This document shows, in pieces, positions 3,697 through 33,211 of a stretch of 64,000 bases of DNA. Every line of letters starts with the position of its first letter. The first letter of the stretch is position 1. Source of the stretch: Desulfosudaceae bacterium (lineage in GTDB: Bacteria; Desulfobacterota; Desulfobacteria; Desulfobacterales; Desulfosudaceae); the NCBI GenBank assembly GCA_963674745.2, contig CAXXDV010000003.1, forward strand, positions 1,824,001 to 1,888,000. Direction: 5' to 3'. Below the pieces are notes generated by a model. The model saw nothing but the letters and a program-made list of their open reading frames with translations, had not been told where the DNA came from and searched no databases. Both the position numbers and the translations under genes were made by a program.

Positions 3697-4102
3697 TTAA
3701 GTGCACTGAATCTGTACGGGAAACAAATAAAAAAAAGAATTTTGGCTGAATTCGACATTCATTGCCAAAATTGTAATTGTCACCAAGTTGATATTTTTGT
3801 CCAGTAAAGATAAATTGTAATTTCGAACTGGCGCGGCCAAATGATAATGCGCCTTTATTTGTCCGGATGAAAAGAGACCTACCCGTTTTCATAAGTTCAT
3901 GATGGACAAGGCGTAAAAAGAAAAATATCATTTTATTTTATTTGCCCATGCTGTCGTTTAAGTCTTTCTGAATAATGCGGGCACTTAACCAAGCAGCCCA
4001 AATGATAGCCAGGGCATTCGGCTTTTGAACATTCGGGGGAAATTGAACATCAACCACCTTAAAGTCAGTCACTGGAAGCCCTGGCTACTTTGGCTGCAGA
4101 CG
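3697..4102. other. Repeated gene-less cassette, copy 1 (incl. attC)
   Basis: GTTAAGTGC...GCACTTAAC; no + strand ORF; five near-identical copies. Confidence 0.85.
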
Positions 4103-4115
4103 TTGGGCATCGAAG

Positions 4116-4583
4116 ATGAAATACTTCTTCATAGCCACTTTTTTAATATTTTTTGCATGTGGATGCGAGAACTCCAATTCTACCTCACAGCCTCCACCAA
4201 AGGGATCTCTGTCTAATCATGAATTTGATGCGCAAGCATCTATATTGCTGGCAGGAAAATGGATTAACCACGATGAATATGAAGCCAGTGAAAAATGGTC
4301 GGAGCTTCACAATACTGTAGACTTTGACAATGATATTGAAGTTAAACGTTGGCTAGACTTACAAAAACAAATCTTAATAAACGCCAGTATGCCTGTAGGA
4401 ATAAAACGTTCTGCCATTCAAGAGTTCTATCTGCACCTCGATCATTCATATGAGTATGAAGCATGGTTTAAGCGGTGCAAGGATACAGGCTTCTTTAAAG
4501 ATTTATTTATCGACCAAAATGTTGATATTATAATTAATGCAATTAATAAAATGAAAAAAGAGCCCAACAATTCAGCCCAGTAG
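4116..4583 (+). CDS. Putative lipoprotein cassette
   Basis: Signal peptide with lipobox-like FACGC; stop lies inside the attC. Confidence 0.8.
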   Translation: MKYFFIATFLIFFACGCENSNSTSQPPPKGSLSNHEFDAQASILLAGKWINHDEYEASEKWSELHNTVDFDNDIEVKRWLDLQKQILINASMPVGIKRSAIQEFYLHLDHSYEYEAWFKRCKDTGFFKDLFIDQNVDIIINAINKMKKEPNNSAQ

Positions 4584-4702
4584 GATCGCCAGGGCACTCG
4601 GGTTTTGAATTTTTGAGAGAACTGGGCATTAACCACCTTTAAGCAAGTCGGAGTAAGCCCTGGCGCCCTCTGGCTGAAGACGTTGGAAGCAAAGGTAAAT
4701 TA

Positions 4703-5014
4703 GTGGGCAAAGCATCTCGATTAAAAAAGATGAGACGAATACAGGGTGCCCAATTTGAGAAAAAGAGAGATATAAAATCAGTTATAAGGCAGGTGACCTG
4801 GTTCAATATTTTGTGTGGGGCGTTTTTTATCCTTGTCGGCAGTATGTTTATTTTTGAAGGTATTGAGGCTTATAAAACTGGGGCTTTAATCCCTGGGACT
4901 TTCAAAGTTCCGCCTATGACAGGTCCGCAATCAATCTTAGCCGGATCTCTTATTGCTATTTTCGGTATATTTTTTGGTGGATATGAAATTTATAAAATTA
5001 AAAAAACGAAATAG
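4703..5014 (+). CDS. Two-TM membrane cassette protein
   Basis: GTG start with AAGGT RBS; two hydrophobic helices. Confidence 0.75.
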   Translation: MGKASRLKKMRRIQGAQFEKKRDIKSVIRQVTWFNILCGAFFILVGSMFIFEGIEAYKTGALIPGTFKVPPMTGPQSILAGSLIAIFGIFFGGYEIYKIKKTK

Positions 5015-5139
5015 AAAACGCTTCCAACAACGCCACTCACACGGACTCGCAGGGGCGGGCTGCCTTTGTCTTGGCATAGTTTGGTGTTGAACTAACTTTA
5101 GCGAAGTCCGCAATCCCTGCTCGCCGGTGGTGGCGGACG

Positions 5140-5545
5140 TTAAGTGCACTAAATCTGTACGTGGAAAAAATAAAAAAAAGAATTTTGGCTGAAATCGCCA
5201 TTCGTTGCCAAAATGGTAATTGTCACCAAGTTGATATTTTTGTCCAGTAAAGATAAATTGTAATTTCGAACTGGCGTGGCCAAATGATAATGCGCCTTTA
5301 TTTGTCCGGATGAAAAGAGACCTACCCGTTTTCATAAGTTCATGATGGACAAGGCGTAAAAAGAAAAATATCATTTTATTTTATTTGCCCATGCTGTCGT
5401 TAAAGTCTTTCTGAATAATGCGGGCACTTAACCAAGCAGCCCAAATGATAGCCAGGGCATTCGGGTTTTGAACATTCGGGGGAAATTGAACGTCAACCAC
5501 CTTAAAGTCAGTCACTGGAAGCCCTGGCTACTTTGGCTGCAAACG
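5140..5545. other. Repeated gene-less cassette, copy 2
   Basis: Near-identical to 3697-4102. Confidence 0.85.
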
Positions 5546-5556
5546 TTATATGCAAT

Positions 5557-5856
5557 ATGAATGATACAAATATCAAAAATTTGAAAGAAGCTGTTGGCTT
5601 GGCATGTGACGCATCGTACACGCCAAATATTTTGAAGGGGAGAGATATTATTCTCTCAATGCCAAAGAAATGGGTTCTTGAAAATATCGAAAATGTTGCG
5701 GCGGAAACGCTGAACTTATCCGACGAATGGCATTTTAGGCGGCTTCTGGAAGTTTACGAAACCCTTGATCAAGATTTGGTTACAAAATTAGTTGAGTTTG
5801 GTCTTAAAAGCACAAACGAAGAAATCGTTGAAGCCGCAACTGATTTTAAGAAATAA
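5557..5856 (+). CDS. Small helical hypothetical cassette protein
   Basis: Fills the cassette. Confidence 0.75.
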   Translation: MNDTNIKNLKEAVGLACDASYTPNILKGRDIILSMPKKWVLENIENVAAETLNLSDEWHFRRLLEVYETLDQDLVTKLVEFGLKSTNEEIVEAATDFKK

Positions 5857-18736: not shown

Positions 18737-19546
18737 ATGAAAAAAGTGGCTATTCTATTAGTATTATTTTTAATTTTTACAGCATTGATTTTTTTTATGA
18801 TGACAAGAAAAGATAGTATTGACAGCGAATCAGCTCAAAAAATCACCGAACAACTAGTTCGTGATGCCGTGTTGATCAAGTTCACGAACGATCGAGGACA
18901 AACCCCACACTATTGGGGAGGTATCCCTTCTGTTAATAAGAACCAATCATGGCCTGTATGCCCGAATTGTGGTAAGCCCCAGACATTCCTCGCTCAGATT
19001 GATACGACGAAAACTCCTGTCCCAGTCCAGATGGATCTCCCTGTTTTATGTTTCTTTGTATGTTTGGACTGCATTGGTACTTGGTGGGACAGTGAAGGCC
19101 CTTTAGGCTTCTCAGTTCTTCGCTTTAGTGGTGTAGGTGATCAAAGTTTAAATAGCGACCTCCCTCCGCGAGAACTCTCAAAGAAGACCATTGAGATGAC
19201 ACTTGGCCACTCACTGCCTTCATGGGGATGCTTGAACCATTATTCGCCAGAACTCTCCAAGCTTTCGTGTGATGCAGACCCTGATAAACCATGGGGTTTG
19301 TATGATGCACTACATCATAAAATATCCTCTGTCTCCACATATGGAGTTCATATGGGAGGATATCCAGATTTCTTTGAGGAGATAGCAACGCCCACGTGCA
19401 AAGAGTGTGGCCGTGAGATGCTCTTGGCTTTACAGGTTTACTCCGAAAACGTTGACTTGCTGGACGATTTGGGCGCTTGCTCACTGTATTTTTTCGTCTG
19501 CAAAGATCATACTGATTCGTCGACTTTGAGATATCAATGCGAATAA
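18737..19546 (+). CDS. DUF1963/YwqG-like cassette protein
   Basis: GG.P...WP.C..CGKP.TFLAQID and GGYP...LALQ...G..YFF motifs; N-terminal TM. Confidence 0.7.
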   Translation: MKKVAILLVLFLIFTALIFFMMTRKDSIDSESAQKITEQLVRDAVLIKFTNDRGQTPHYWGGIPSVNKNQSWPVCPNCGKPQTFLAQIDTTKTPVPVQMDLPVLCFFVCLDCIGTWWDSEGPLGFSVLRFSGVGDQSLNSDLPPRELSKKTIEMTLGHSLPSWGCLNHYSPELSKLSCDADPDKPWGLYDALHHKISSVSTYGVHMGGYPDFFEEIATPTCKECGREMLLALQVYSENVDLLDDLGACSLYFFVCKDHTDSSTLRYQCE

Positions 19547-19562
19547 ATAAAGGTGCCTAACA

Positions 19563-20280
19563 CATACAAGATGACCAGGCTGATGATGTCGCCGATGCCC
19601 GGAACGGATTTCAACAGCATATAGCTGTGGTAATCGTGGCCCTTGGCATGTTTGAGGATATGATATTCAACGCTGGAAAGATGCTGGTCATAAAAGCCGA
19701 TCAGCTGGACATCCAGATCAATGCTTTTCTGGGCGCTGGGATCGTCAAATCGATCTTCGACCAGCTTGCGATTGGCTTTGTACTTTAAGTTTTTTCCGAT
19801 CTCCGGCAGGTTGTACTGGGTGTTGGTGTTTTGGATATGCGCGATGAGTTCGCCCCGTTTGCGCGTCAGATGCATTCTTCTTCGCAGCAGGTCCCGGGTG
19901 GCCCGCATCGCGGCGGGGTATACAAAGGCCACCGGGAAATTGCCGCCCCTGATCAGGCTGGCAATTTTGTATGAGTCGATCCTGTCGTTTTTGGCCTTGC
20001 CGCCATGAATGGCTTTCATGTAAAGGGCATGTCCGAGGATAAACGGAATATTGCGGTTTTCGCAGAAATCTGCTACCCAATACCAGGAGAACATACATTC
20101 CACGGCGATGACAAGATCGTCCAGGAAGGGGGAGATCGCACGTTCGAGTGCATCCGGTTTTGATTTGATTTTTTTGTGATAAACAACCTGACCGTCACTG
20201 TCCAGAATACAGACATACAGTGATCTGGCGTGAAGGTCGATACCGCAGTAATACTTGTGCTGTTTGGTATAGAATTTCAT
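19563..20280 (-). pseudogene. Truncated IS110 transposase
   Basis: Identical to the full copy up to LVILY, then reads out into the attC. Confidence 0.9.
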
Positions 20281-20368
20281 TGGGCTTCCTCCTTTGTTTT
20301 TGGTTTTTGCCAACTCCAATTTCTCAGCATAATGGTATGCTGTTTGAAGGGGGAGGCTCAATGATTAT
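19563..20368 (-). mobile_element. Internally deleted IS110/IS1111-type element in attC
   Basis: Identical to 22297-23102; flanked by the CA core; lacks the 3' non-coding region and the transposase C-terminus. Confidence 0.9.
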
Positions 20369-20520
20369 CAATGCCACTCACACAGACTCGCAGGGGCGCG
20401 CGGCATTGGTTCTGGCATAGTTTGGTGTTGAACTAACACTTAGCGAAGTTCGCCAACCCTGCTTGCCGGTGGTGGCCGACGTTAGAATTATTAACGAAAA
20501 TTTTTGCCGACAATCGTTTT

Positions 20521-21014: not shown

Positions 21015-21485
21015 ATGAATTGTACACAATTTAAAAAACTCTATGAAAAATACTGGAATCTTGGCCCAGTAAATAATCAATATTCTTCTGAACATGCAAA
21101 TTGGAACAAGCATAAGGACGAATGTACTTCTTGTTTTGAGTGGTCCAGAACCCAATATTGTATTTATCGTGGGATTGATCCAGACAATCACTGCTGTTTA
21201 AATATGGCATACGCTATCTCCCATCCAATCGAAACAATACATCAGGGGAAAAACCGAATTTTAGATTGGGAAGCAATTACGGACGAATATTTGATCCCGA
21301 TACCTTATGATGGATACAAAGCGACGATCATTAGTTACTGTCCTTTCTGCGGGAAAACTTTACCGGAATCAAAGCGAGACCTATGGTACAAAAAACTTTA
21401 CGAGCTGGGTTATGATGATCCTGGAAAACAAAATATACCACCAGATTTCCGGTCAGATAAATGGTGGCGGAATAGAAACACTTAA
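21015..21485 (+). CDS. DUF6980-like Cys-rich cassette protein
   Basis: HCC..M....I.YCPFCGKTLPESKRDLW..L..LG.DDP....P..F.SD.WW motif. Confidence 0.7.
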   Translation: MNCTQFKKLYEKYWNLGPVNNQYSSEHANWNKHKDECTSCFEWSRTQYCIYRGIDPDNHCCLNMAYAISHPIETIHQGKNRILDWEAITDEYLIPIPYDGYKATIISYCPFCGKTLPESKRDLWYKKLYELGYDDPGKQNIPPDFRSDKWWRNRNT

Positions 21486-21509
21486 CACATATGAGCCGCC
21501 CGGAGTCAA
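21486..21509 (-). promoter_or_regulatory. -35 half of the IS circle-junction promoter
   Basis: TTGACT (21509-21504) + 17 nt + GATAAT, the -10 forming only when joined to the other end (23102-23098). Confidence 0.8.
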
Positions 21510-21970
21510 TAGGGAATAAAAATTTTTTAGGGCCTGAGTTTTTACTCCCCCTTTCCGTTTTTTAAACAGAACGGACTCACTGTCTTTAATTCAAAGCGCG
21601 TAGTAAAATAGCTGCTACAAACACATATTGAGGGTCTCTTACGCAGTATCTGCTGCCGGTTTACCAAGTTGAACAACACAGTGGTAAACGCCCTAGAATA
21701 TATTCGGTGACCTCATGCCGCCCTATTCAAAGGTCGGGGTTGATCACGATACTGCCGTGACCATCCAGTTATAATGCAGGGTCGGGTAAGGCGCAGCGTT
21801 TCCTGTTCCGTTTATTATTTAAATGCCGCCACTCTAATCAACGCCAAGGGATCCCAACCGGTTGCTTTATTGATATTTAAGCAGTCGGGCTGCGGAAATT
21901 CAATTTCACATATCACTGTCAAAGTCATTTTCACAGGTCCCAGTTAGGCATCAAGCTGTGGCGGCAAGCT
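21488..21970 (-). ncRNA. Putative bridge/seek RNA region of the IS1111-type element
   Basis: ~480-nt non-coding 3' end with 8-nt matches to the target attC and to the donor junction; RNA ends unknown. Confidence 0.6.
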
Positions 21971-23014
21971 TTACGTCGGAAGAAACCGTTCCATATTAAA
22001 CGGTTCCTTATGTTTGAGCATATAATACACTGTCCGGCCTAACTTGTGGGCCAGGATGGTAAGTGATTTTCCTTTACTGTGCCGTTTGGTCAATCTATTG
22101 ACATAGGCCTTGATCGGTTCGTTGCCTCTTATGGATAGGACGGCTGCTTCAGAAAAGGCCCATTTTAAATGGGCGTTGCCGATTTTGGCGCCGGAGGTGC
22201 CGTAGATTTTTCCGGCTGACTCTGCCCTGCATTTGACCAGCCGGGCATACGAGGCAAAGTCCTGGACGGTCGGGAACCGGCTGATGTCGTAGATTTCATA
22301 CAAGATGACCAGGCTGATGATGTCGCCGATGCCCGGAACGGATTTCAACAGCATATAGCTGTGGTAATCGTGGCCCTTGGCATGTTTGAGGATATGATAT
22401 TCAACGCTGGAAAGATGCTGGTCATAAAAGCCGATCAGCTGGACATCCAGATCAATGCTTTTCTGGGCGCTGGGATCGTCAAATCGATCTTCGACCAGCT
22501 TGCGATTGGCTTTGTACTTTAAGTTTTTTCCGATCTCCGGCAGGTTGTACTGGGTGTTGGTGTTTTGGATATGCGCGATGAGTTCGCCCCGTTTGCGCGT
22601 CAGATGCATTCTTCTTCGCAGCAGGTCCCGGGTGGCCCGCATCGCGGCGGGGTATACAAAGGCCACCGGGAAATTGCCGCCCCTGATCAGGCTGGCAATT
22701 TTGTATGAGTCGATCCTGTCGTTTTTGGCCTTGCCGCCATGAATGGCTTTCATGTAAAGGGCATGTCCGAGGATAAACGGAATATTGCGGTTTTCGCAGA
22801 AATCTGCTACCCAATACCAGGAGAACATACATTCCACGGCGATGACAAGATCGTCCAGGAAGGGGGAGATCGCACGTTCGAGTGCATCCGGTTTTGATTT
22901 GATTTTTTTGTGATAAACAACCTGACCGTCACTGTCCAGAATACAGACATACAGTGATCTGGCGTGAAGGTCGATACCGCAGTAATACTTGTGCTGTTTG
23001 GTATAGAATTTCAT
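21971..23014 (-). CDS. IS110-family DEDD transposase/recombinase
   Basis: CGIDLH, AVE, KNDRIDS, SVPGIG, ESAGK, GNAHLKWAF motifs; GGAGG RBS before ATG 23014. Confidence 0.95.
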   Translation of the reverse strand: MKFYTKQHKYYCGIDLHARSLYVCILDSDGQVVYHKKIKSKPDALERAISPFLDDLVIAVECMFSWYWVADFCENRNIPFILGHALYMKAIHGGKAKNDRIDSYKIASLIRGGNFPVAFVYPAAMRATRDLLRRRMHLTRKRGELIAHIQNTNTQYNLPEIGKNLKYKANRKLVEDRFDDPSAQKSIDLDVQLIGFYDQHLSSVEYHILKHAKGHDYHSYMLLKSVPGIGDIISLVILYEIYDISRFPTVQDFASYARLVKCRAESAGKIYGTSGAKIGNAHLKWAFSEAAVLSIRGNEPIKAYVNRLTKRHSKGKSLTILAHKLGRTVYYMLKHKEPFNMERFLPT

Positions 23015-23214
23015 TGGGCTTCCTCCTTTGTTTTTGGTTTTTGCCAACTCCAATTTCTCAGCATAATGGTATGCTGTTTGAAGGGGGAGGCTCAATGATT
23101 ATCAATGCCACTCACACAGACTCGCAGGGGCGCGCGGCATTGGTTCTGGCGTAGTTTGGAGTTAAACTCACTTTAGCGAAGTCCGCAATCCCTGCTCGCC
23201 GGTGGTGGCGGACG

Positions 23215-23555
23215 TTCAAGTAAGCTGCCGCAGGTTTATGCGACAATTTTGGGCATTAAGTTATAATTTAGGGGCGAGCACAATTATAAAAAGGGGCTTA
23301 CGCTTCAGTCTTCATAAGCTCGGATCAGCTGGTACATTTTTGTTTTATTTGTGCGATATTCATCGGCATTAAGAACCAGATCCGATTCTGGGAAAAGGCT
23401 GAAAAAATGATTTTGAAGTCTGAAAAAGGGAAATTGATGAACCAATTCCTGGTGGCCGAAGGTAATAATGATTCTAAAAAGGGTCATGTCCAGGGGATAA
23501 AAAAATATTTTAAACGGACAGTCGGTACTTTTCACCATTAATATAGAAGGGCCGA
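23215..23555. other. Cassette without + strand ORF (gene-less or inverted small ORF)
   Basis: GTTCAAGT / ACTTGAAC ends; only a minus-strand ~77-aa ORF (23538-23305). Confidence 0.55.
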
Positions 23556-23660: not shown

Positions 23661-24281
23661 ATGAATAGGATGTCATATTCGCTGGCCTTGATGATTGTGG
23701 TTGCGTCGTTTGTTTGTGGATGCGCAACTCAATCGTCCAGGCAGAGCCTTATCGAAGACATCGATTCTGTAATCCCTCCGGGGTGGTACACGTTCGACCG
23801 CGGAGATGGAATTTGGGTTATCAGAAAACAACCAGTTCGGATGACCAGCTTTCTGTCCTCCTTGGGTGGGAGTGCAGAACCACACTCCAAAACATATCAG
23901 ATTGTGCTTTCCAATGCTGATTTCATTCCCCCATCGGAATTCCATGTTGTCAGAAAGAAGCAGGAGGAGGTCGACGACTTGCGCAAACAAGTGATGGTCA
24001 TTCCGCATGAGAAGGACAAGACGAGGCATCCACGAGATTGGAAATTCCAGCCTCGCACAAAGGCGGAAGAAAACATGATTCTTGAGTACCGGAATAAGTC
24101 TCAACGGATTAAGCCTCTTCCGAACCTCTACTGGAGGCATCACGCATTCCGTATGGATCAAGGGTTCCTAATGGATTCCTTCGAAGTTGAATCTGATGAA
24201 AAGGAATGCATAGCAGTACTCAAGTCCGTTTTGAGTCTATTCAATGAATATGGAGACCAATCCAATTGGGATAGGGAGTAG
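23661..24281 (+). CDS. Putative lipoprotein cassette
   Basis: Lipobox VCGC; present stop is inside the intron, while the original stop lies in the attC once the intron is removed. Confidence 0.75.
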   Translation: MNRMSYSLALMIVVASFVCGCATQSSRQSLIEDIDSVIPPGWYTFDRGDGIWVIRKQPVRMTSFLSSLGGSAEPHSKTYQIVLSNADFIPPSEFHVVRKKQEEVDDLRKQVMVIPHEKDKTRHPRDWKFQPRTKAEENMILEYRNKSQRIKPLPNLYWRHHAFRMDQGFLMDSFEVESDEKECIAVLKSVLSLFNEYGDQSNWDRE

Positions 24282-24974
24282 CCTCACGGCTACCCCCTCC
24301 CACACCACCTGGCATACGGATCACGTACCAAGGCGGTTCGGCTGGTACTGATGAAACCGGCTGTGAGTTATCCCACCAGCTCTACCGGGTTTTCAGAGAA
24401 AGCTCGCTACGTGAATTTCGGCAGCTGCCGCATTATCCCCGTAAGAGATACTCCCTTACTTGCCACCACCATTTACCCGTGCCATTCGGTCCGGGCACCG
24501 TTCCGGCCTTCACCGGGGTGAGTCCTCCGGGTATACTTCTCCCGCTTAAGGGAGGCCCGGCTCGTTTCCGCCGGCTACTATGCCTTCTGCTGACTTCTCC
24601 CCTGCGGTCAGGGCCGGTTACCCGACCCTCAGCCGTTGTACGGCACAGGAGAGATCTCCCGGGGTAAGCACGTGTCTTTCGGTACGTAAATGCCAAGTTT
24701 ACGGACACGCCTTAAGATGGATAGAGGACTTTGCCTTGTGGTGCAGGCTCGTCCCGGCGTGCGCGCCTTATACTCGATTCCTGTGCGTCATCCCGTACCT
24801 TCGCGGTACCCTGCCGCAGCAGGGCGGCTTCCTCCCGAAGCACCGTCACCGGTACCCCGTTGCACTACCGCTACACCCTTCGCCTCCATCAAGCTGGGTC
24901 TAAGACTTGCCAAAATTATCAAATATATGATAGCCTTGGCTCACTTTTAAGAACATGTGCCGTGCCCGGCACAC
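24265..24974 (-). mobile_element. ORF-less group IIC-attC intron, copy 1 (710 nt)
   Basis: 5' GTGTG, 3' CCCAAT; DV GAACCGCC..GTACG; inserted at A|AC of the attC core, bottom strand. Confidence 0.9.
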
Positions 24975-25071
24975 ACAAAGCCATCGACGGCGACTGAGTA
25001 AACCGCGCCTTCGGCACGGTTCCCTCAGCGCGTCATGGCCGACGTTATCATAATAAAAGGTATAATGTATA

Positions 25072-25473: not shown

Positions 25474-27730
25474 TTGCGACCCGAGGTTGTATGATTGAAT
25501 GTGTAAAAGGAGAAAGACCAACACTTATTACACCTGGCGTGTCCCCGCCAGTACCCTAGGATGGCATGCGTGCTGCGCGCTGTGCAGTGGGTATGAAGCC
25601 CATCCGACAACGTACCGAATCAGGAGAAGGCCGTGAGGCCGAATCCTTTCCGGGAACCCCACCCGGTTAAGGGCCAGGGTCAGAAAGATATGACGAGATT
25701 ATTCGAAGAATCGCACGCGCCGTCAGTCGCCGACCGACCTACGGGGGTTAAGAGGTCGAAGACATGCTTCTCTTGTGCTTGCATGTGCGGAGAGGTTGCA
25801 GGTCTATAACGTGCCTGCACGGGACCCATCAGTCCGTCGGTGTCCAGATTCCGTCTAAGTCTTTCGTTAAGGTCAATCATGCAGAACGGGGGAACCCCGT
25901 CACTTCGCCCGACGCAAGGTCAGGCAGGCATTACCGTAAGGCGTGCTGTGGGAGGGATGGGATTGAGAGGTTGGAAGAAGCAAATGCCGTCGGGAAAGCC
26001 GGCGGATAGAGCATGAAACATGGCTTAATCACGAAGATCGGCGGTATCGCCCCGATGAATAGTGAGCCGACGTCCAACAGGTGTTTCATTGCGAGAGAAT
26101 CTGGAGAACCTTTGCACATGAGAAAGCAAATGACGGCGAAAGCTGGTGCGCTCATGGACGATGCCGGGATGTGGAAAACCATTGACTGGAAGCAGGCCCG
26201 GCATACCGTTAGAAGACTGCAGGTGCGTATCGCAAAGGCTGTAAAGGAAAACAGGTGGAACAAAGTCAAGGCTCTGCAATATCTGTTGACCCGCTCGTTC
26301 CACGCCAGACTACTGGCTGTCAAACGAGTGACTTCCAATAAGGGGAAAAAGACCCCGGGCGTTGACGGTATCCTGTGGCGGGATGCCGGAGCCAAATGGC
26401 GGGCTGTCCTCAGCCTGCACAGACGTGGATACAGGCCCCAGCCGCTGAGCAGAATCTATATTCCCAAAAAGAACGGCAAGAAAAGACCGCTTTCAATACC
26501 CACCATGAACGACAGGACCATGCAGGCGCTATACAAGCAGGCCCTGGCGCCGGTAGCAGAAACCGTGGCCGACAGGAACTCTTACGGCTTCCGGGAAGGC
26601 AGAGCCTGCGCCGATGCCGTTGAAGCCGCCTTCAATGCGCTGTCCAAGCCCAACTCGGCAACATGGGTACTGGAAGGGGACATCAAGGGATGCTTCGACA
26701 ACATCTCCCATGAATGGATGCTAGCAAATATCCCCATGGATAAAGTCGTTCTGGCCAAGTGGCTGAAGGCCGGATATGTCGAGAACGGTATTATGTACCC
26801 GACAAAAAAAGGGAACGCCACAGGGGGGCATTATTAGCCCCACCTTATCAAACCTAGTCCTGGACGGACTGGAGCAAACCGTGCACAATGCGGTCCGGCG
26901 CCGGTCCCGGGTCAACTTTGTCCGCTATGCCGACGATTTTATCATTACCGGTAAATCCAAACGGATACTGGAGATAAACGTCAAACCAGCGGTAGAGGCG
27001 TTCCTGAGTGAGCGCGGCCTGACGTTATCAACCGAAAAGACCGTGATCACTCACATCAAAAAGGGTTTTACCTTCCTCGGGCAGACCTTCCGCAAGCACG
27101 GCAGAAAGCTTTACATTACACCATCTGCCGACGGCGTTCGCGTCCTTATCCGGAAGGTGAGCGAACATATCCGTAAACACGTTGGTTCGCCGATGCCGGT
27201 CCTGATCAAGAAGCTTAACGCAATACTTCGCGGTTGGGCCAATTACCACCGCCACGTGGTATCATCGGAGATCTTCTCGCGTATCGACACCTTTGTGTTT
27301 GAACAACTATGGCGCATGGTCAGACGACGCCACCCAAACAAGCCCAAAGGATGGCTGGTCAACAAATACTGGTCGGCCCCCAATGGAAAACACTGGTTCA
27401 GCGTCAAACACAAAACTGTAAAAGGCGTAAAGGTCTATACGGTTTTACGAACCTGTGCTATTGGTATTAGAAGATACGTGAAAATCAGAGCAGATGCAAA
27501 TCCTTACTCACCGGAAGACGCCGGATACTTCCAGCGACGCCGGGAAAACAAGGAGAGCAAGCTCTCACCGGCTATGTCACATCGTGAATATCGAGCCATG
27601 GCCGCTTAGGAAGTTAACAGCCGGGTCGTCCACCAGAGCGGCCCTTGAAATGCTTGAGCCGTGTGACGGGAAACTGTCACGCACGGTTCTTAGGGGGGAA
27701 AGGGACCGAAAGGTCCCTGCCCTACCCGGT
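25474..27730 (+). mobile_element. Group II intron (non-C class, En-minus IEP) inserted just after an attC GTT core, top strand
   Basis: 5' TTGCG; DV GAGCCGTGTGACGGGAAACTGTCACGCACGGTTC; DVI hairpin; removal restores GTTATGTTTC, complementary to the cassette end GAAACATA(AC). Confidence 0.88.
26118..27609 (+). pseudogene. ltrA: Group II intron RT/maturase with +1 frameshift
   Basis: RVT_N domain, TPGVDG, PQGG, YADD; frame break in the A7 run at 26804-26810. Confidence 0.85.
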
Positions 27731-28225: not shown

Positions 28226-28231
28226 AACATA

Positions 28232-28941
28232 ATTGGGATAGGGAGTAGCCTCACGGCTACCCCCTCCCACACCACCTGGCATACGGATCACGTACCAAGG
28301 CGGTTCGGCTGGTACTGATGAAACCGGCTGTGAGTTATCCCACCAGTTCCACCGGGTTTTCAGAGAAAGCTCGCTACGTGAATTTCGGCAGCTGCCGCAT
28401 TATCCCCGTAAGAGATACTCCCTTACTTGCCACCACCATTTACCCGTGCCATTCGGTCCGGGCACCGTTCCGGCCTTCACCGGGGTGAGTCCTCCGGGTA
28501 TACTTCTCCCGCTTAAGGGAGGCCCGGCTCGTTTCCGCCGGCTACTATGCCTTCTGCTGACTTCTCCCCTGCGGTCAGGGCCGGTTACCCGACCCTCAGC
28601 CGTTGTACGGCACAGGAGAGATCTCCCGGGGTAAGCACGTGTCTTTCGGTACGTAAATGCCAAGTTTACGGACACGCCTTAAGATGGATAGAGGACTTTG
28701 CCTTGTGGTGCAGGCTCGTCCCGGCGTGCGCGCCTTATACTCGATTCCTGTGCGTCATCCCGTACCTTCGCGGTACCCTGCCGCAGCAGGGCGGCTTCCT
28801 CCCGAAGCACCGTCACCGGTACCCCGTTGCACTACCGCTACACCCTTCGCCTCCATCAAGCTGGGTCTAAGACTTGCCAAAATTATCAAATATATGATAG
28901 CCTTGGCTCACTTTTAAGAACATGTGCCGTGCCCGGCACAC
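28232..28941 (-). mobile_element. ORF-less group IIC-attC intron, copy 2 (710 nt)
   Basis: Near-identical to 24265-24974; splits an attC at A|AC. Confidence 0.9.
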
Positions 28942-29073
28942 ACCATTCAGCGCAAGAGGATCGCCAGGGCATTCGAGTTTTGAACACTCGAAGATAATTG
29001 ACCATAAAACAACTTTAAGTCAGTCGGAGGAAGCCCTGGCGCCCTTTGGCTGAAGACGTTCTGCATAAAAAAC

Positions 29074-29762: not shown

Positions 29763-29774
29763 TTAATTTGCAGA

Positions 29775-30484
29775 ATTGGGATAGGGAGTAGCCTCACGGC
29801 TACCCCCTCCCACACCACCTGGCATACGGATCACGTACCAAGGCGGTTCGGCTGGTACTGATGAGACCGGCTGTGAGTTATCCCACCAGTTCCACCGGGT
29901 TTTCAGAGAAAGCTCGCTACGTGAATTTCGGCAGCTGCCGCATTATCCCCGTAAGAGATACTCCCTTACTTGCCACCACCATTTACCCGTGCCATTCGGT
30001 CCGGGCACCGTTCCGGCCTTCACCGGGGTGAGTCCTCCGGGTATACTTCTCCCGCTTAAGGGAGGCCCGGCTCGTTTCCGCCGGCTACTATGCCTTCTGC
30101 TGACTTCTCCCCTGCGGTCAGGGCCGGTTACCCGACCCTCAGCCGTTGTACGGCACAGGAGAGATCTCCCGGGGTAAGCACGTGTCTTTCGGTACGTAAA
30201 TGCCGAGTTTACGGACACGCCTTAAGATGGATAGAGGACTTTGCCTTGTGGTGCAGGCTCGTCCCGGCGTGCGCGCCTTATACTCGATTCCTGTGCGTCA
30301 TCCCGTACCTTCGCGGTACCCTGCCGCAGCAGGGCGGCTTCCTCCCGAAGCACCGTCACCGGTACCCCGTTGCACTACCGCTACACCCTTCGCCTCCATC
30401 AGGCTGGGTCTAAGACTTGCCAAAATTATCAAATATATGATAGCCTTGGATCACTTTTAAGAACATGTGCCGTGCCCGGCACAC
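29775..30484 (-). mobile_element. ORF-less group IIC-attC intron, copy 3 (710 nt)
   Basis: Near-identical to the other two; splits a short (~60 bp) attC. Confidence 0.9.
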
Positions 30485-30553
30485 ACCAGGGCATCCAGCA
30501 GACCGCAAAAAGCCGCGGCTGCTGATGCCCGCCGTTATGCATCTTAAAAAAGC

Positions 30554-31133: not shown

Positions 31134-33065
31134 ATCGGGATAGGACTCCCCATTACTGAGGAGCCCTCCCACACCACCTGGCATACGGATCACGTACCAA
31201 GGCGGTTCGGCTGATCAGGAAGATTAGTTTCCGGGTAGATAAAATCCTTTGTCAGTAAAATATTTCTCGGGCATGGCGATGGCTACCCACTTGATTTTGC
31301 TCATGTGCCAGTACTTCTTGCGGGCATTGCCGCAGAGCATGGCGTCCTTGTGAGCGATACCAAGTTTCTCAAGGTTGCGAACCCTGGCTTTCGGATTCTT
31401 CCATTGTTTCCAGACAAGACTCCGTAGTCTTCGCAGTATCCAGATTTTGAGCCCTTTGAGGAAGGACTTGGCTTCCGTGAGCCGGAAGTAGTTCCACCAT
31501 CCCCGAATGTATCGGTTCAACTCCTGAATAACCTGCCGCAGGCTTTTTCCCCGCTTGCGGCTGGTCAGTTCCCTGACCTTGTCTTTGAAGCGTTTCATGC
31601 TTTCGGCATGAACCCGGATTTTTGACTGTCCTTACATTTGCAAATACGTGAATCCGAGAAATTTGCGCAGCCATGGCCTGCTGACGGCACTCTTGTCCTG
31701 GTTTACCTTGAGCTTGAGTTTCACAGTCAGGAACCTGGTGATACTTCGCATTACCCTTTCGGCAGCTTTTCGGCTCCTGCAGTAGATCCTGAAGTCGTCG
31801 GCATAACGGACATATCTGTGCCCTCTTTTCTCCAGTTCTTTGTCCAGTTCGTCCAGGACGATATTGGACAGCAGCGGAGACAGGGGGCCTCCCTGGGGCG
31901 TTCCTTCTTCCGTGTGAACCGCAACCCCTTCGATCATCACGCCGGACCTCAGATATTGCCGTATCACCTTCAATACGCGCTTATCCTTGATCCTTGTGGC
32001 GAGTCTGCTCATCAGCCGGTCATGGTTGACCCGGTCGAAGAATTTGGACAGGTCCATGTCGACGACATGGGTGTATCCGTCTACCATGTGCCGCTTACCC
32101 TGCATAACCGCATCATGCGCGGATCTACCGGGCCTGAACCCATAACTGGATTCAGAAAAGGCGGGCTCCCAGATCTGTTCTACGATCTGGGCGACGGCTT
32201 GCTGGATACACCGGTCAAGCACCGTGGGTATTCCCAGTAAACGCACCCCCCCGCCCGGTTTGGGAATCTCTTTCCTTTTCACCGGCAGCGGTTTGTGGGT
32301 GCCGTTTTGCAGGTCGTTCTTAATTTCAGGCCAATGCCTGGCCAGGTATTTCCCGAGTTGATCGGTTTTCATCCCATCAACTCCGGGCGCTCCCTGGTTG
32401 GCACAAACCTGTTTCCAGGCCCGGATAATGTTACTGCGGTCAAGAATCATCTCCATTAACCGGTCACTTTCTCCCAGACGTTCGGCAATCTGTGACGCTG
32501 CAAATATTTCCATCTGCTGTGGCTTTGTATTCACAAGTACACACCTCCTAATCGTCACTATCATTTACCCGTCCCATTCGGTCCGGGCACCGTTCCGGCC
32601 TTCACCGGGGTGAGTCCTCCGGGTATACTTCTCCCGCTTAAGGGAGGCCCGGCTCGTATCCTCCAGCTACTATGCCATCTGCTGACTTCTCCCATGCGGT
32701 CAGGGCCGGTTACCCGACCCTCAGCCGTTTTCCGGCACATGGGAGATCTCCCGGGGTAAACACATGTCTTTCGATACGTGAATGCCGAGTTTACGGACAC
32801 GCCTTAAGATGGATAGAGGACTTTATCTTGTTGTGCAGACTCGTCCCGGCGTGCGCGCCTTATACTCGATTCCTGTGCGTCATCCCGTACCTTCGCGGTG
32901 CCCCGCCGCAGCAGGGCGGCTTCCTTCCGAAGCACCGTCACCGGCACCCCGTTGCACTACCGCTACACCCTTCGCCTCCATCAGGCTGGGTCTAAGACTT
33001 GCCAAATACGTCAATATCTTATATGTTTGGCTCACTTTTAAGAACATGTGCCGTGCCCGGCACAC
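31134..33065 (-). mobile_element. Full-length group IIC-attC intron
   Basis: 5' GTGTG, 3' CCCGAT; inserted after TTGT on the attC bottom strand; ribozyme closely related to the ORF-less copies. Confidence 0.92.
31224..32534 (-). pseudogene. ltrA: Class C intron RT/maturase with in-frame TAA
   Basis: GAPGVDG, PQGG, YADD, FLGF; TAA at 31634-31632, then the X domain continues in the same frame; GTG start with AGGAGG. Confidence 0.85.
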
Positions 33066-33211
33066 ACAATCAATCAAGCGCAAAGGACAGCAAGGGCACT
33101 CGGGTTTTGAACATTTGGGGGGGGTGAACAACCGTAACCATAAACCAAGTCAGTGGAAGCCCTGGCTGCCATTGGCTTCAGACGTTATCGCTCTCATACA
33201 GAAAAGGACTT

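Follow-up and report, generated by a model that had tools for sequence, protein, structure and literature searches.

The question raised by this locus is how an insertion sequence has come to lie at a single register in different attC sites of one genome, and whether an RNA encoded downstream of its recombinase gene could have guided it there. The locus is part of a 64,000-nt stretch of the genome of a Desulfosudaceae bacterium (assembly GCA_963674745.2, contig CAXXDV010000003.1, positions 1,824,001–1,888,000 of the forward strand), referred to here as the window; window coordinates count from its first letter, and G000 denotes the host genome. A long integron cassette array makes up the window; it has attCs of two families, with 21 and 15 copies of the two main repeat families, and one of the family-A attCs is interrupted by the insertion sequence. 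The element is apparently a recently active member of the IS110 superfamily with an IS1111-like architecture, aimed at an attC family of its host. We propose, with a probability of about 0.8 and on the strength of sequence comparisons, that a bridge/seekRNA encoded in its 3' non-coding region guides insertion into the family-A attCs.

The recombinase carries the two domains that characterize the IS110 superfamily, an N-terminal DEDD/RuvC-like domain and a C-terminal IS116/IS110/IS902 domain, and scores 206.6 bits against the NF033542 'IS110 family RNA-guided transposase' model, whose cut-off is 140. In an alignment read by eye it has the expected residue at those positions that are at least 95% conserved among 59 unique clade proteins. 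The non-coding ends are 88 nt long at the 5' side and 483 nt at the 3' side, and the inverted repeats TGAGCCTCCC and TGAGCCGCCC sit 8 nt and 4 nt, respectively, inside the core-adjacent ends. Sub-terminal inverted repeats (7–17 bp in IS1111 elements) and a long non-coding region downstream of the gene are both features of the IS1111 group.

The boundaries of the element were set from three junctions in the host genome and from comparison with intact family-A attCs. It interrupts its attC directly after the R'' box (...ACTTAA-CA-[IS]-CA-ATGCCACTC), with a CA core at both ends (21486–87 and 23103–04), and it lies antisense to the cassettes at the 5' (R'') end of the attC. There are five matches to the element in the host genome: two full copies, one 808-bp 5' remnant, and two right-end pieces of 133–136 nt. 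The second full copy (G000:C3:2335045-2336663) occupies another family-A attC, TTAA-CA-[IS]-CA-ACGCCACTC, and is three substitutions apart from the first; both 347-aa frames are intact and differ at one residue. The remnant, also in the window, is identical to the corresponding part of the full window copy and has the same transposase-proximal junction, ...TTATCA followed by ATGCCACTC. The attCs beside these two window copies agree at 104 of 119 aligned positions and are thus different sites. A first-pass annotation of the window had already described insertion at a CA core of a family-A attC, and the CA at both ends and the three junctions at one register, each in a different attC, bear this out; the other window copy, which it placed at the equivalent position, does share the junction but is an 808-bp remnant rather than a full copy. 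Orientation-specific insertion near the attC 5' end, as in the IS1111-attC group, is seen in all three host-genome insertions, and three insertions at one register exceed what chance would give.

Relatives of the element are abundant. A scan of one genome per prokaryotic species returned at least 578 candidate stretches, of which at least 555 encode a relative, and the best 79 loci of these at least 578 stretches are 53–78% identical and come from Desulfobacterota, Nitrospirota, Acidobacteriota, Spirochaetota, Planctomycetota, Gammaproteobacteria and others. Twelve of the 79 loci lack the left-end motif by the pattern used; both ends could be set in 50 loci and the window, and removal of one locus with a misassigned right end (L083) left 49 relatives plus the window, or 50 elements, for analysis. 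Nearly all of these relatives have the left end ...T-TG-ATACT... and the right end ...ATAnG-TG-TTA(G/T)GC, in which the core G and the right flank together spell a GTTRRRY box. Among five relatives' genomes tested, three have an integron integrase near the copies (at 4–13 kb, at 11–45 kb, and as a truncated gene at 3 kb), one has none near them and one is ambiguous. Integrase proximity replaced a crude test of attC shape at the relatives' sites, based on an R' partner and DNA folding, which did not properly recover the window's own attC.

The 3' non-coding regions of the 50 elements share a common layout. Its first part, a putative target-binding module, starts 0–30 nt after the stop codon in most elements, and later where a leader is inserted. 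In order, it comprises a stem strand, a conserved AGCYY, a variable 7–8-mer ending in AAC, UGG, an interior of 70–120 nt with a conserved hairpin, a variable 7-mer, UG (GG in some elements), AUU(G/A)G and the second stem strand. RNAalifold predicts a 10-bp closing stem from 40 unique relatives, with each pair canonical in 32–38 of the 40, at least four pair types among the commonest listed at each pair, and compensatory changes at all ten pairs. The window non-coding sequence on its own folds at -51 kcal/mol (z -4.2).

The two variable segments of this module are the candidate target guides, the right guide preceding the left by some 95 nt in the predicted RNA. Read in element orientation, the left guide and the left flank are of the same sense and match at 152 of 308 positions across 44 unique pairs, compared with 98.5 ± 7.2 in shuffles that permute sites among elements and ignore the kinship of the elements; none of 10,000 shuffles reaches this number. 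By the same procedure the right guide is complementary to the core G and right flank at 245 of 352 positions (224.3 ± 4.8 in shuffles, reached by 1 of 10,000). In most elements the UG or GG after the left guide follows the core at the site. The first-pass annotation had proposed CAACGCCA (21839–46) as a guide, and this proposal holds: the string is the left-target guide with its core, is found at the same position in the family alignment, and covaries with the flank. A predicted structured RNA with loop segments matching both target strands, as expected of a bridge/seekRNA, is seen here at the level of sequence and covariation.

The left guide also fits the host. Empty sites fitting left guide, core and TAAC (TAACAAYGCCAC) number 48 in the host genome, compared with 0 for the reversed control. 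TAACAAYGCCAC occurs exclusively in cassette-array regions, mostly as the C variant, which is an exact guide match, so that left guide and core fit the majority variant of the host family-A attC; the window site itself has the T variant, which would give a G-T wobble with the guide.

A second conserved module, a multi-loop presumed to bind the donor, follows the target module and is closed by a long-range helix (NCUGC with GCAGN) whose outermost pair is UA in 14, UG in 8, CG in 4 and GC in 1 by alignment and RNAalifold of 30 relatives. Two inner helices, the conserved segment GGNCGGCAUGAGG and a second UAACUGG loop lie inside it. In the relatives the closing strand is immediately preceded by the pattern C(A/G/U)AUAnn-UG-UUUGG, and the five bases before the core of this pattern are the last five right-end bases of the same element at 115 of 120 positions (24 unique pairs; 94.2 ± 2.9 in shuffles, 0 of 10,000 reaching 115). 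This donor guide follows six right-end variants (ATATG, ATAAG, ATAGG, ATAGA, ATAAA and ATACG, from a listing read by eye), and the pattern did not find it in three of the 50 elements (L010, L019 and L058). After the core, its UUU(G)G is similar to the TTAGG with which the right flank begins, in the way that the target strand continues into the AU that opens the left end. The anatomy of the two modules, their conservation, the covariation of their helices and the covariation of guides with flanks are direct observations on these elements.

Several results weigh against a guide RNA of this design. The left-guide agreement is partial, with a mean of about 3.5 of 7 and only 1–2 of 7 in some elements, and since the shuffles are also blind to kinship, the covariation of guides with flanks is support rather than proof. 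The right guide of the window element fits the two occupied sites only at TAAC and one base (5/8 and 4/8), and its distal bases (GCC) fit few host sites, three having CCTAAC, and are mismatched to those that are occupied. When the window sequence is folded singly, the left guide is engaged in a helix with a segment 5' of the right guide, which the consensus prediction from 40 relatives lacks. A comparison with Rfam gave no matching family for the 3' non-coding region, and a scan for a separate, internal RNA promoter gave three promoter-like sites, no excess over the 3.0 ± 1.7 in shuffles. For the two donor halves, a right-end guide was found and a left-end guide was not: a 6-nt complement to the core G and first five left-end bases turns up in 2 of the 44 unique non-coding regions, in positions that are not conserved, and the same-sense form of the left-end sequence is likewise scattered across these regions. 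The second UAACUGG loop (21768–21774), considered as a second right-flank guide, was rejected, with 196 of 336 matches compared with 191.7 ± 5.8 in shuffles (2,585 of 10,000 reaching 196) in a test in which some anchors were misplaced.

Parts of the element also occur separately from the whole. The two solo right-end pieces of the host genome (G000:C1:1481764-1481896, L004, and G000:C1:2287287-2287422, L005) are each followed by TG-TTAGGC and begin no more than 3 nt from the internal donor-guide site (window 21617–21623); one lies in a family-A attC and L005 in a family-B attC. These pieces of ~133 nt could be mini-elements or remnants of site-specific deletion. An Olavius symbiont scaffold (L065) has a tandem second copy of the 3' piece with its joint exactly at the internal donor-guide site, and a Desulfopila chromosome (L014) has a similar tandem duplication with its joint at another internal TG. 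The 808-bp remnant breaks off at a CA within the transposase gene, and what adjoins it on this deleted side (window 19540–19575) is an attC R'' box (GCCTAA-CA); it looks as if a target half-site had recombined with a poor internal match. The solo pieces, the tandem 3' duplications and the remnant joint would all fit recombination at half-matching sites.

These pieces bear on an alternative in which the 3' segments act as DNA, the segment at 21617–21632 being an internal copy of the right end that is read by the recombinase and kept identical to it by recombination. The starts of the solo pieces and the joints in L065 and L014 speak for this, and ISPpu9 is reported to form circles from sub-modules (PMC12288879). 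However, DNA that encodes a guide necessarily copies the target of that guide, so recombination at this place is equally expected if the segment is an RNA guide. The DNA explanation leaves the target module unaccounted for, in which both guides covary with host flanks and not with element DNA, and it is at odds with the position of 21617–21632 between two covarying helices, where a loop strand should be. We consider it unlikely.

A further alternative is that sites are chosen mainly through folded single-stranded attC, or through protein reading of the R'' box, with the RNA–DNA matches secondary. The poor left-flank matches of many relatives (1–3 of 7) and the near-invariance of TAAC in the right guide would suit this, as would the presence of the element in two attC families of the host, given L005. 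Group IIC-attC introns and the IS1111-attC group moreover enter the same attC end in the same orientation, according to PMC3001079. Against it stand the significant covariation of both guides with the flanks and a distant relative (L086) on a Pseudomonas aeruginosa plasmid (NZ_CP093017.1, locus 3900-5560), 30.5% identical over 96% of the length and with the same end architecture and RNA frame. Its guide, AAGGGGAC-UGG, is complementary to its own right flank, G-TCCCCTT, which is not an attC (a single copy with ends set by eye); the donor guide of L086, too, fits the right end of that element. ISEc11 has in addition been reprogrammed experimentally (PMC11187229). Site choice by attC shape or protein is accordingly given little weight as an explanation.

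The remaining strings named in the first-pass annotation, CGCCACTC (21827–34) and TCACATAT (21906–13) as guides, with TGATA (21871–75) and TGTT (21804–07) ~31 nt off as their partners, are all present where it placed them and match the attC or the joined ends, yet are very improbable as the guides, for CGCCACTC is mostly the 3' strand of a closing stem that covaries as a helix in 40 relatives, TCACATAT, taken as the donor guide, falls in the variable interior of the target loop at no constant position and does not occur in L022, the closest relative, and the family alignment puts the partner guide at 21943–21949. In that interior, stretches of at least 8 nt that match the circle junction of the same element are somewhat commoner than in mismatched pairings (4/40 relatives compared with 49/1,538), a marginal enrichment in which cases are not independent, L031 and L052 being near-identical. 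By a rough estimate, an 8-mer match between 485 nt on two strands and a 20–30-nt site is expected ~0.3 times, and TGATA and TGTT are only a 5-mer and a 4-mer; apart from CAACGCCA, the short matches are not beyond chance. The covariation of 8-nt segments that had been suggested as a check came out as guide with flank for CAACGCCA, as a stem for CGCCACTC, and without conserved position for TCACATAT. The central idea, of an intact RNA-guided recombinase programmed against the host attC, holds up, with the intact frames, the conserved junction promoter, the RNA-like layout and the left-guide fit in its favour; two of its three guides and both partners were misplaced.

Joining of the element ends through one core creates a predicted promoter pointing into the transposase gene, TTGACT and GATAAT with a 17-nt spacer and TGn before the -10, as described in the first-pass annotation. 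It is conserved beyond chance: of 44 unique relatives, their right ends located for this count solely by complementarity to the left inverted repeat, 43 have TTGAC just ahead of the inverted repeat, and the -10 equivalent in the 44 is GATACT in 37, GATAAT in 4, GATAGT in 2 and GATTCT in 1. A promoter at the circle junction is a property of IS1111 elements, seen here at the sequence level. The 5' leader also has a hairpin, CAGCAUA...UAUGCUG (window 23045–23065, minus strand), between the -10 and the ribosome-binding site; it recurs in many relatives with a different sequence and may regulate translation of the transposase.

A cycle can be modelled on the published work on IS621, ISEc11 and ISKpn4. 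The DEDD recombinase would excise the element as a circle, and the joined ends would form a sigma-70 promoter driving the recombinase gene and the downstream non-coding region, which would yield the bridge/seekRNA. By analogy with those systems we infer that this RNA is produced, binds the recombinase and steers the reaction. Its target module would be an internal loop closed by the 10-bp stem, in which the 5' side, GCCUAAC, would pair with the strand reading G-TTAGGC of the attC R'' box and the 3' side, UUGGCGU-UG, with the opposite strand of ...TGGCGT-TG. Together the two pairings would lead to insertion at TAA-CA-AYGCCA of family-A attCs, always antisense to the cassettes. In the multi-loop module, CAAUAUG-UG-UUU copies the last bases of the right end and the core and would serve as donor guide. 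The predicted features are collected in Table 1.

Table 1. Coordinates of the insertion sequence, its predicted RNA modules and the interrupted attC in the window.
Feature	Position	Strand	Remarks
Full-length insertion sequence	21486..23104	-	1,619 bp including the CA (TG on minus strand) core at both ends
Transposase/recombinase gene, 347 aa	21971..23014	-	PF01548 (4.5e-16), PF02371 (1.5e-18)
Sub-terminal inverted repeat, left copy, TGAGCCTCCC	23085..23094	-	9/10 match to right copy
Sub-terminal inverted repeat, right copy, TGAGCCGCCC (plus-strand reading)	21492..21501	+	Same arrangement in relatives
Target-binding module of predicted bridge/seekRNA	21823..21967	-	Closing stem 21967-21958 paired with 21832-21823
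Right-target guide GCCUAAC	21943..21949	-	Complementary to G+TTAGGC of the attC R'' box, element orientation
Left-target guide UUGGCGU and core UG	21839..21847	-	CAACGCCA read on the other strand
Second conserved module, multi-loop, presumed donor-binding	21611..21797	-	Long-range helix GCUGC (21797-21793) with GCAGC (21615-21611)
Donor (right-end) guide CUCAAUAUG, core UG, then UUUGU	21617..21632	-	
-35 hexamer TTGACT of predicted junction promoter, in right end	21504..21509	-	
-10 hexamer GATAAT of predicted junction promoter	23098..23103	-	One-base overlap with core
R'' box of interrupted attC, across the element from the remainder	21479-21485		
Remainder of interrupted family-A attC	23105..23222	+	81-92% identity to other family-A attCs
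Remnant: first 808 bp, with left end and ~3/4 of transposase gene, without non-coding region	19563..20370	-	

The array also contains group II introns. Four near-identical short copies without an open reading frame (24264–24978, 28231–28945, 29774–30488 and 32549–33069, minus strand) match the Rfam D1-D4-3 and D1-D4-1 models at 118–122 bits, and are antisense to the cassettes with their ends beside attC-like sequence; one more group II intron is on the plus strand at 25533–27730. They are possibly attC-targeting group IIC introns. As the element shares the array with several intron copies, the array gives the appearance of a landing zone used in common by site-specific mobile elements. Three full integron integrase genes (C3:27977, C3:2348261 and C1:2117407) are present in the host genome, along with several separate attC arrays; no integrase gene lies inside the array of the window, and one of the three is 12 kb from the second full copy. 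In one relative, on a Holophagales contig (L043), the right flank repeats ~25 nt of the left flank, leaving the target sequence in duplicate either side of the element; other copies in that genome do not show this.

Elements of the IS1111 family that target attC were reportedly described by Tetu and Holmes in 2008 and by Post and Hall in 2009. The window element shares with this IS1111-attC group (ISKpn4, ISPst6, ISPa21 and ISPa25) a DEDD recombinase, sub-terminal inverted repeats, a long 3' non-coding region, and insertion near the attC 5' end antisense to cassettes, the last as stated for the group in PMC3001079. The seekRNAs of the attC-targeting ISKpn4 and ISPst6 were demonstrated experimentally in 2024 and co-purify with the transposase, as presented in PMC11187229. 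There too, a segment complementary to the top strand stands 5' of a segment matching the top strand, and in our own comparison UAAC in the 5' segment of the printed RNA reads the R'' box, as in the window element. In the printed non-coding regions GGAUAU(G/A)CG tracks the right end (...CATATG in ISKpn4, ...CATATA in ISPst6), paralleling the window donor guide.

The differences concern lineage, crossover and RNA. A 20-nt motif that ISKpn4 and ISPst6 have in common in their non-coding regions, as printed in the PMC11187229 supplement, gave 67 metagenome loci as comparators; in a plasmid collection the product names were too generic to pick out ISKpn4-type elements, and the two hits inspected were not in integrons. 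The recombinases of 25 of the motif-bearing elements gave only five weak BLASTP hits with the window protein, four covering the C-terminal ~160–170 residues at 18–20% identity (best E 0.003) and the fifth 95 residues at 23% (E 2.4); the non-attC relative L086 is closer to it. Judged by BLASTP against these motif-fetched comparators, the window protein appears to fall outside the ISPst6/ISPa21 recombinase clade. Relative to the IS1111 C-terminal motif GL-P----S(T)G, as given in PMC11187229, the window clade has RL------SxGK, lacking the proline and having S and G one residue further apart, whereas the comparators have GMTPREFSSG. The label 'IS1111-type' in the first-pass annotation is apt for the architecture, and does not extend to close kinship with the published attC-targeting group.

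GTT begins 1 nt after the right end in 37 of 46 window-clade flanks, whereas in the ISKpn4/ISPst6-motif elements GTTA begins 6 nt after it in 36 of 50 unique flanks and 4–5 nt after it in 13, with none in 1. The published IS1111-attC site, TTGAA*CGAATTGTTAG, agrees with the 6-nt offset of the comparators (PMC13604230, Table 1), and its crossover, TTGAA*CG at ~6 nt before GTTAG, is not that of the window clade. As read from the flanks, the window-clade crossover is ~5 nt nearer the R'' box than that of the ISKpn4/ISPst6 type. The non-coding region is ~480 nt in the window element and ~260 nt in the ISKpn4/ISPst6 type, with no sequence likeness by eye.

Similarities to other RNA-guided elements are more general. 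Like the IS621 bridge RNA, the predicted RNA has two modules, for target and donor, guides for both strands flank a 2-nt core, and the left-guide strand runs on a few bases past the core; it differs in that the RNA region is 3' of the gene, the order of the guides is reversed, and the donor part is a multi-loop in which no left-end guide was found. Donor-binding bases lie in a multi-loop in many IS1111 members, according to Durrant et al. (PMC11208160). As in the natural re-direction of ISEc11 and ISXne4, close relatives keep the scaffold and change the guide: L022, the closest relative, with a protein 78% identical to that of the window, has a different left guide before the same UGAUUAG. Unlike in ISEc11 and ISXne4, the re-direction in the window clade is mostly within attC sites of different hosts. 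The occurrence of sub-modules alone in the host genome recalls the modular transposition of ISPpu9, with the difference that the solo piece here is the last ~133 nt, without the target module.

Bridge/seekRNA recombinases are under development as programmable genome-writing tools, and their natural diversity feeds that work. The window clade offers a different RNA scaffold, with three guide segments that appear readable directly from covariation, and raises the question of how the fourth half, the left end of the donor, is recognised where no RNA guide for it was found. For integron biology, the insertion splits R'' from the rest of the attC and should disable the recombination site of that cassette, and the clade would be a second abundant lineage disabling attC at the R'' box.

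The basic picture drawn in 2008–2009 and 2024 is unchanged by the window element, as its kind is already known; the separate widespread clade and its insertion register appear to be new, neither being described in the titles and abstract openings of the papers listed for seekRNA/IS1111, for IS1111-attC, and for attC with bridge RNA or IS110. More speculatively, and with considerable doubt as to the whole, the clade may be a second RNA-guided insertion sequence lineage whose attC targeting is independent of ISKpn4/ISPst6 and which is widespread in environmental chromosomal integrons of many phyla. Such a lineage would read R'' at the crossover with a ~350-nt three-part RNA, and would recognise one donor half by RNA and the other by protein or inverted repeats, while its donor-guide DNA would double as a secondary recombination site that spawns ~130-nt right-end mini-elements and tandem 3' modules. 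In its orientation and the attC end that it enters, the window element is as the IS1111-attC group; in lineage, register and RNA it differs from it.

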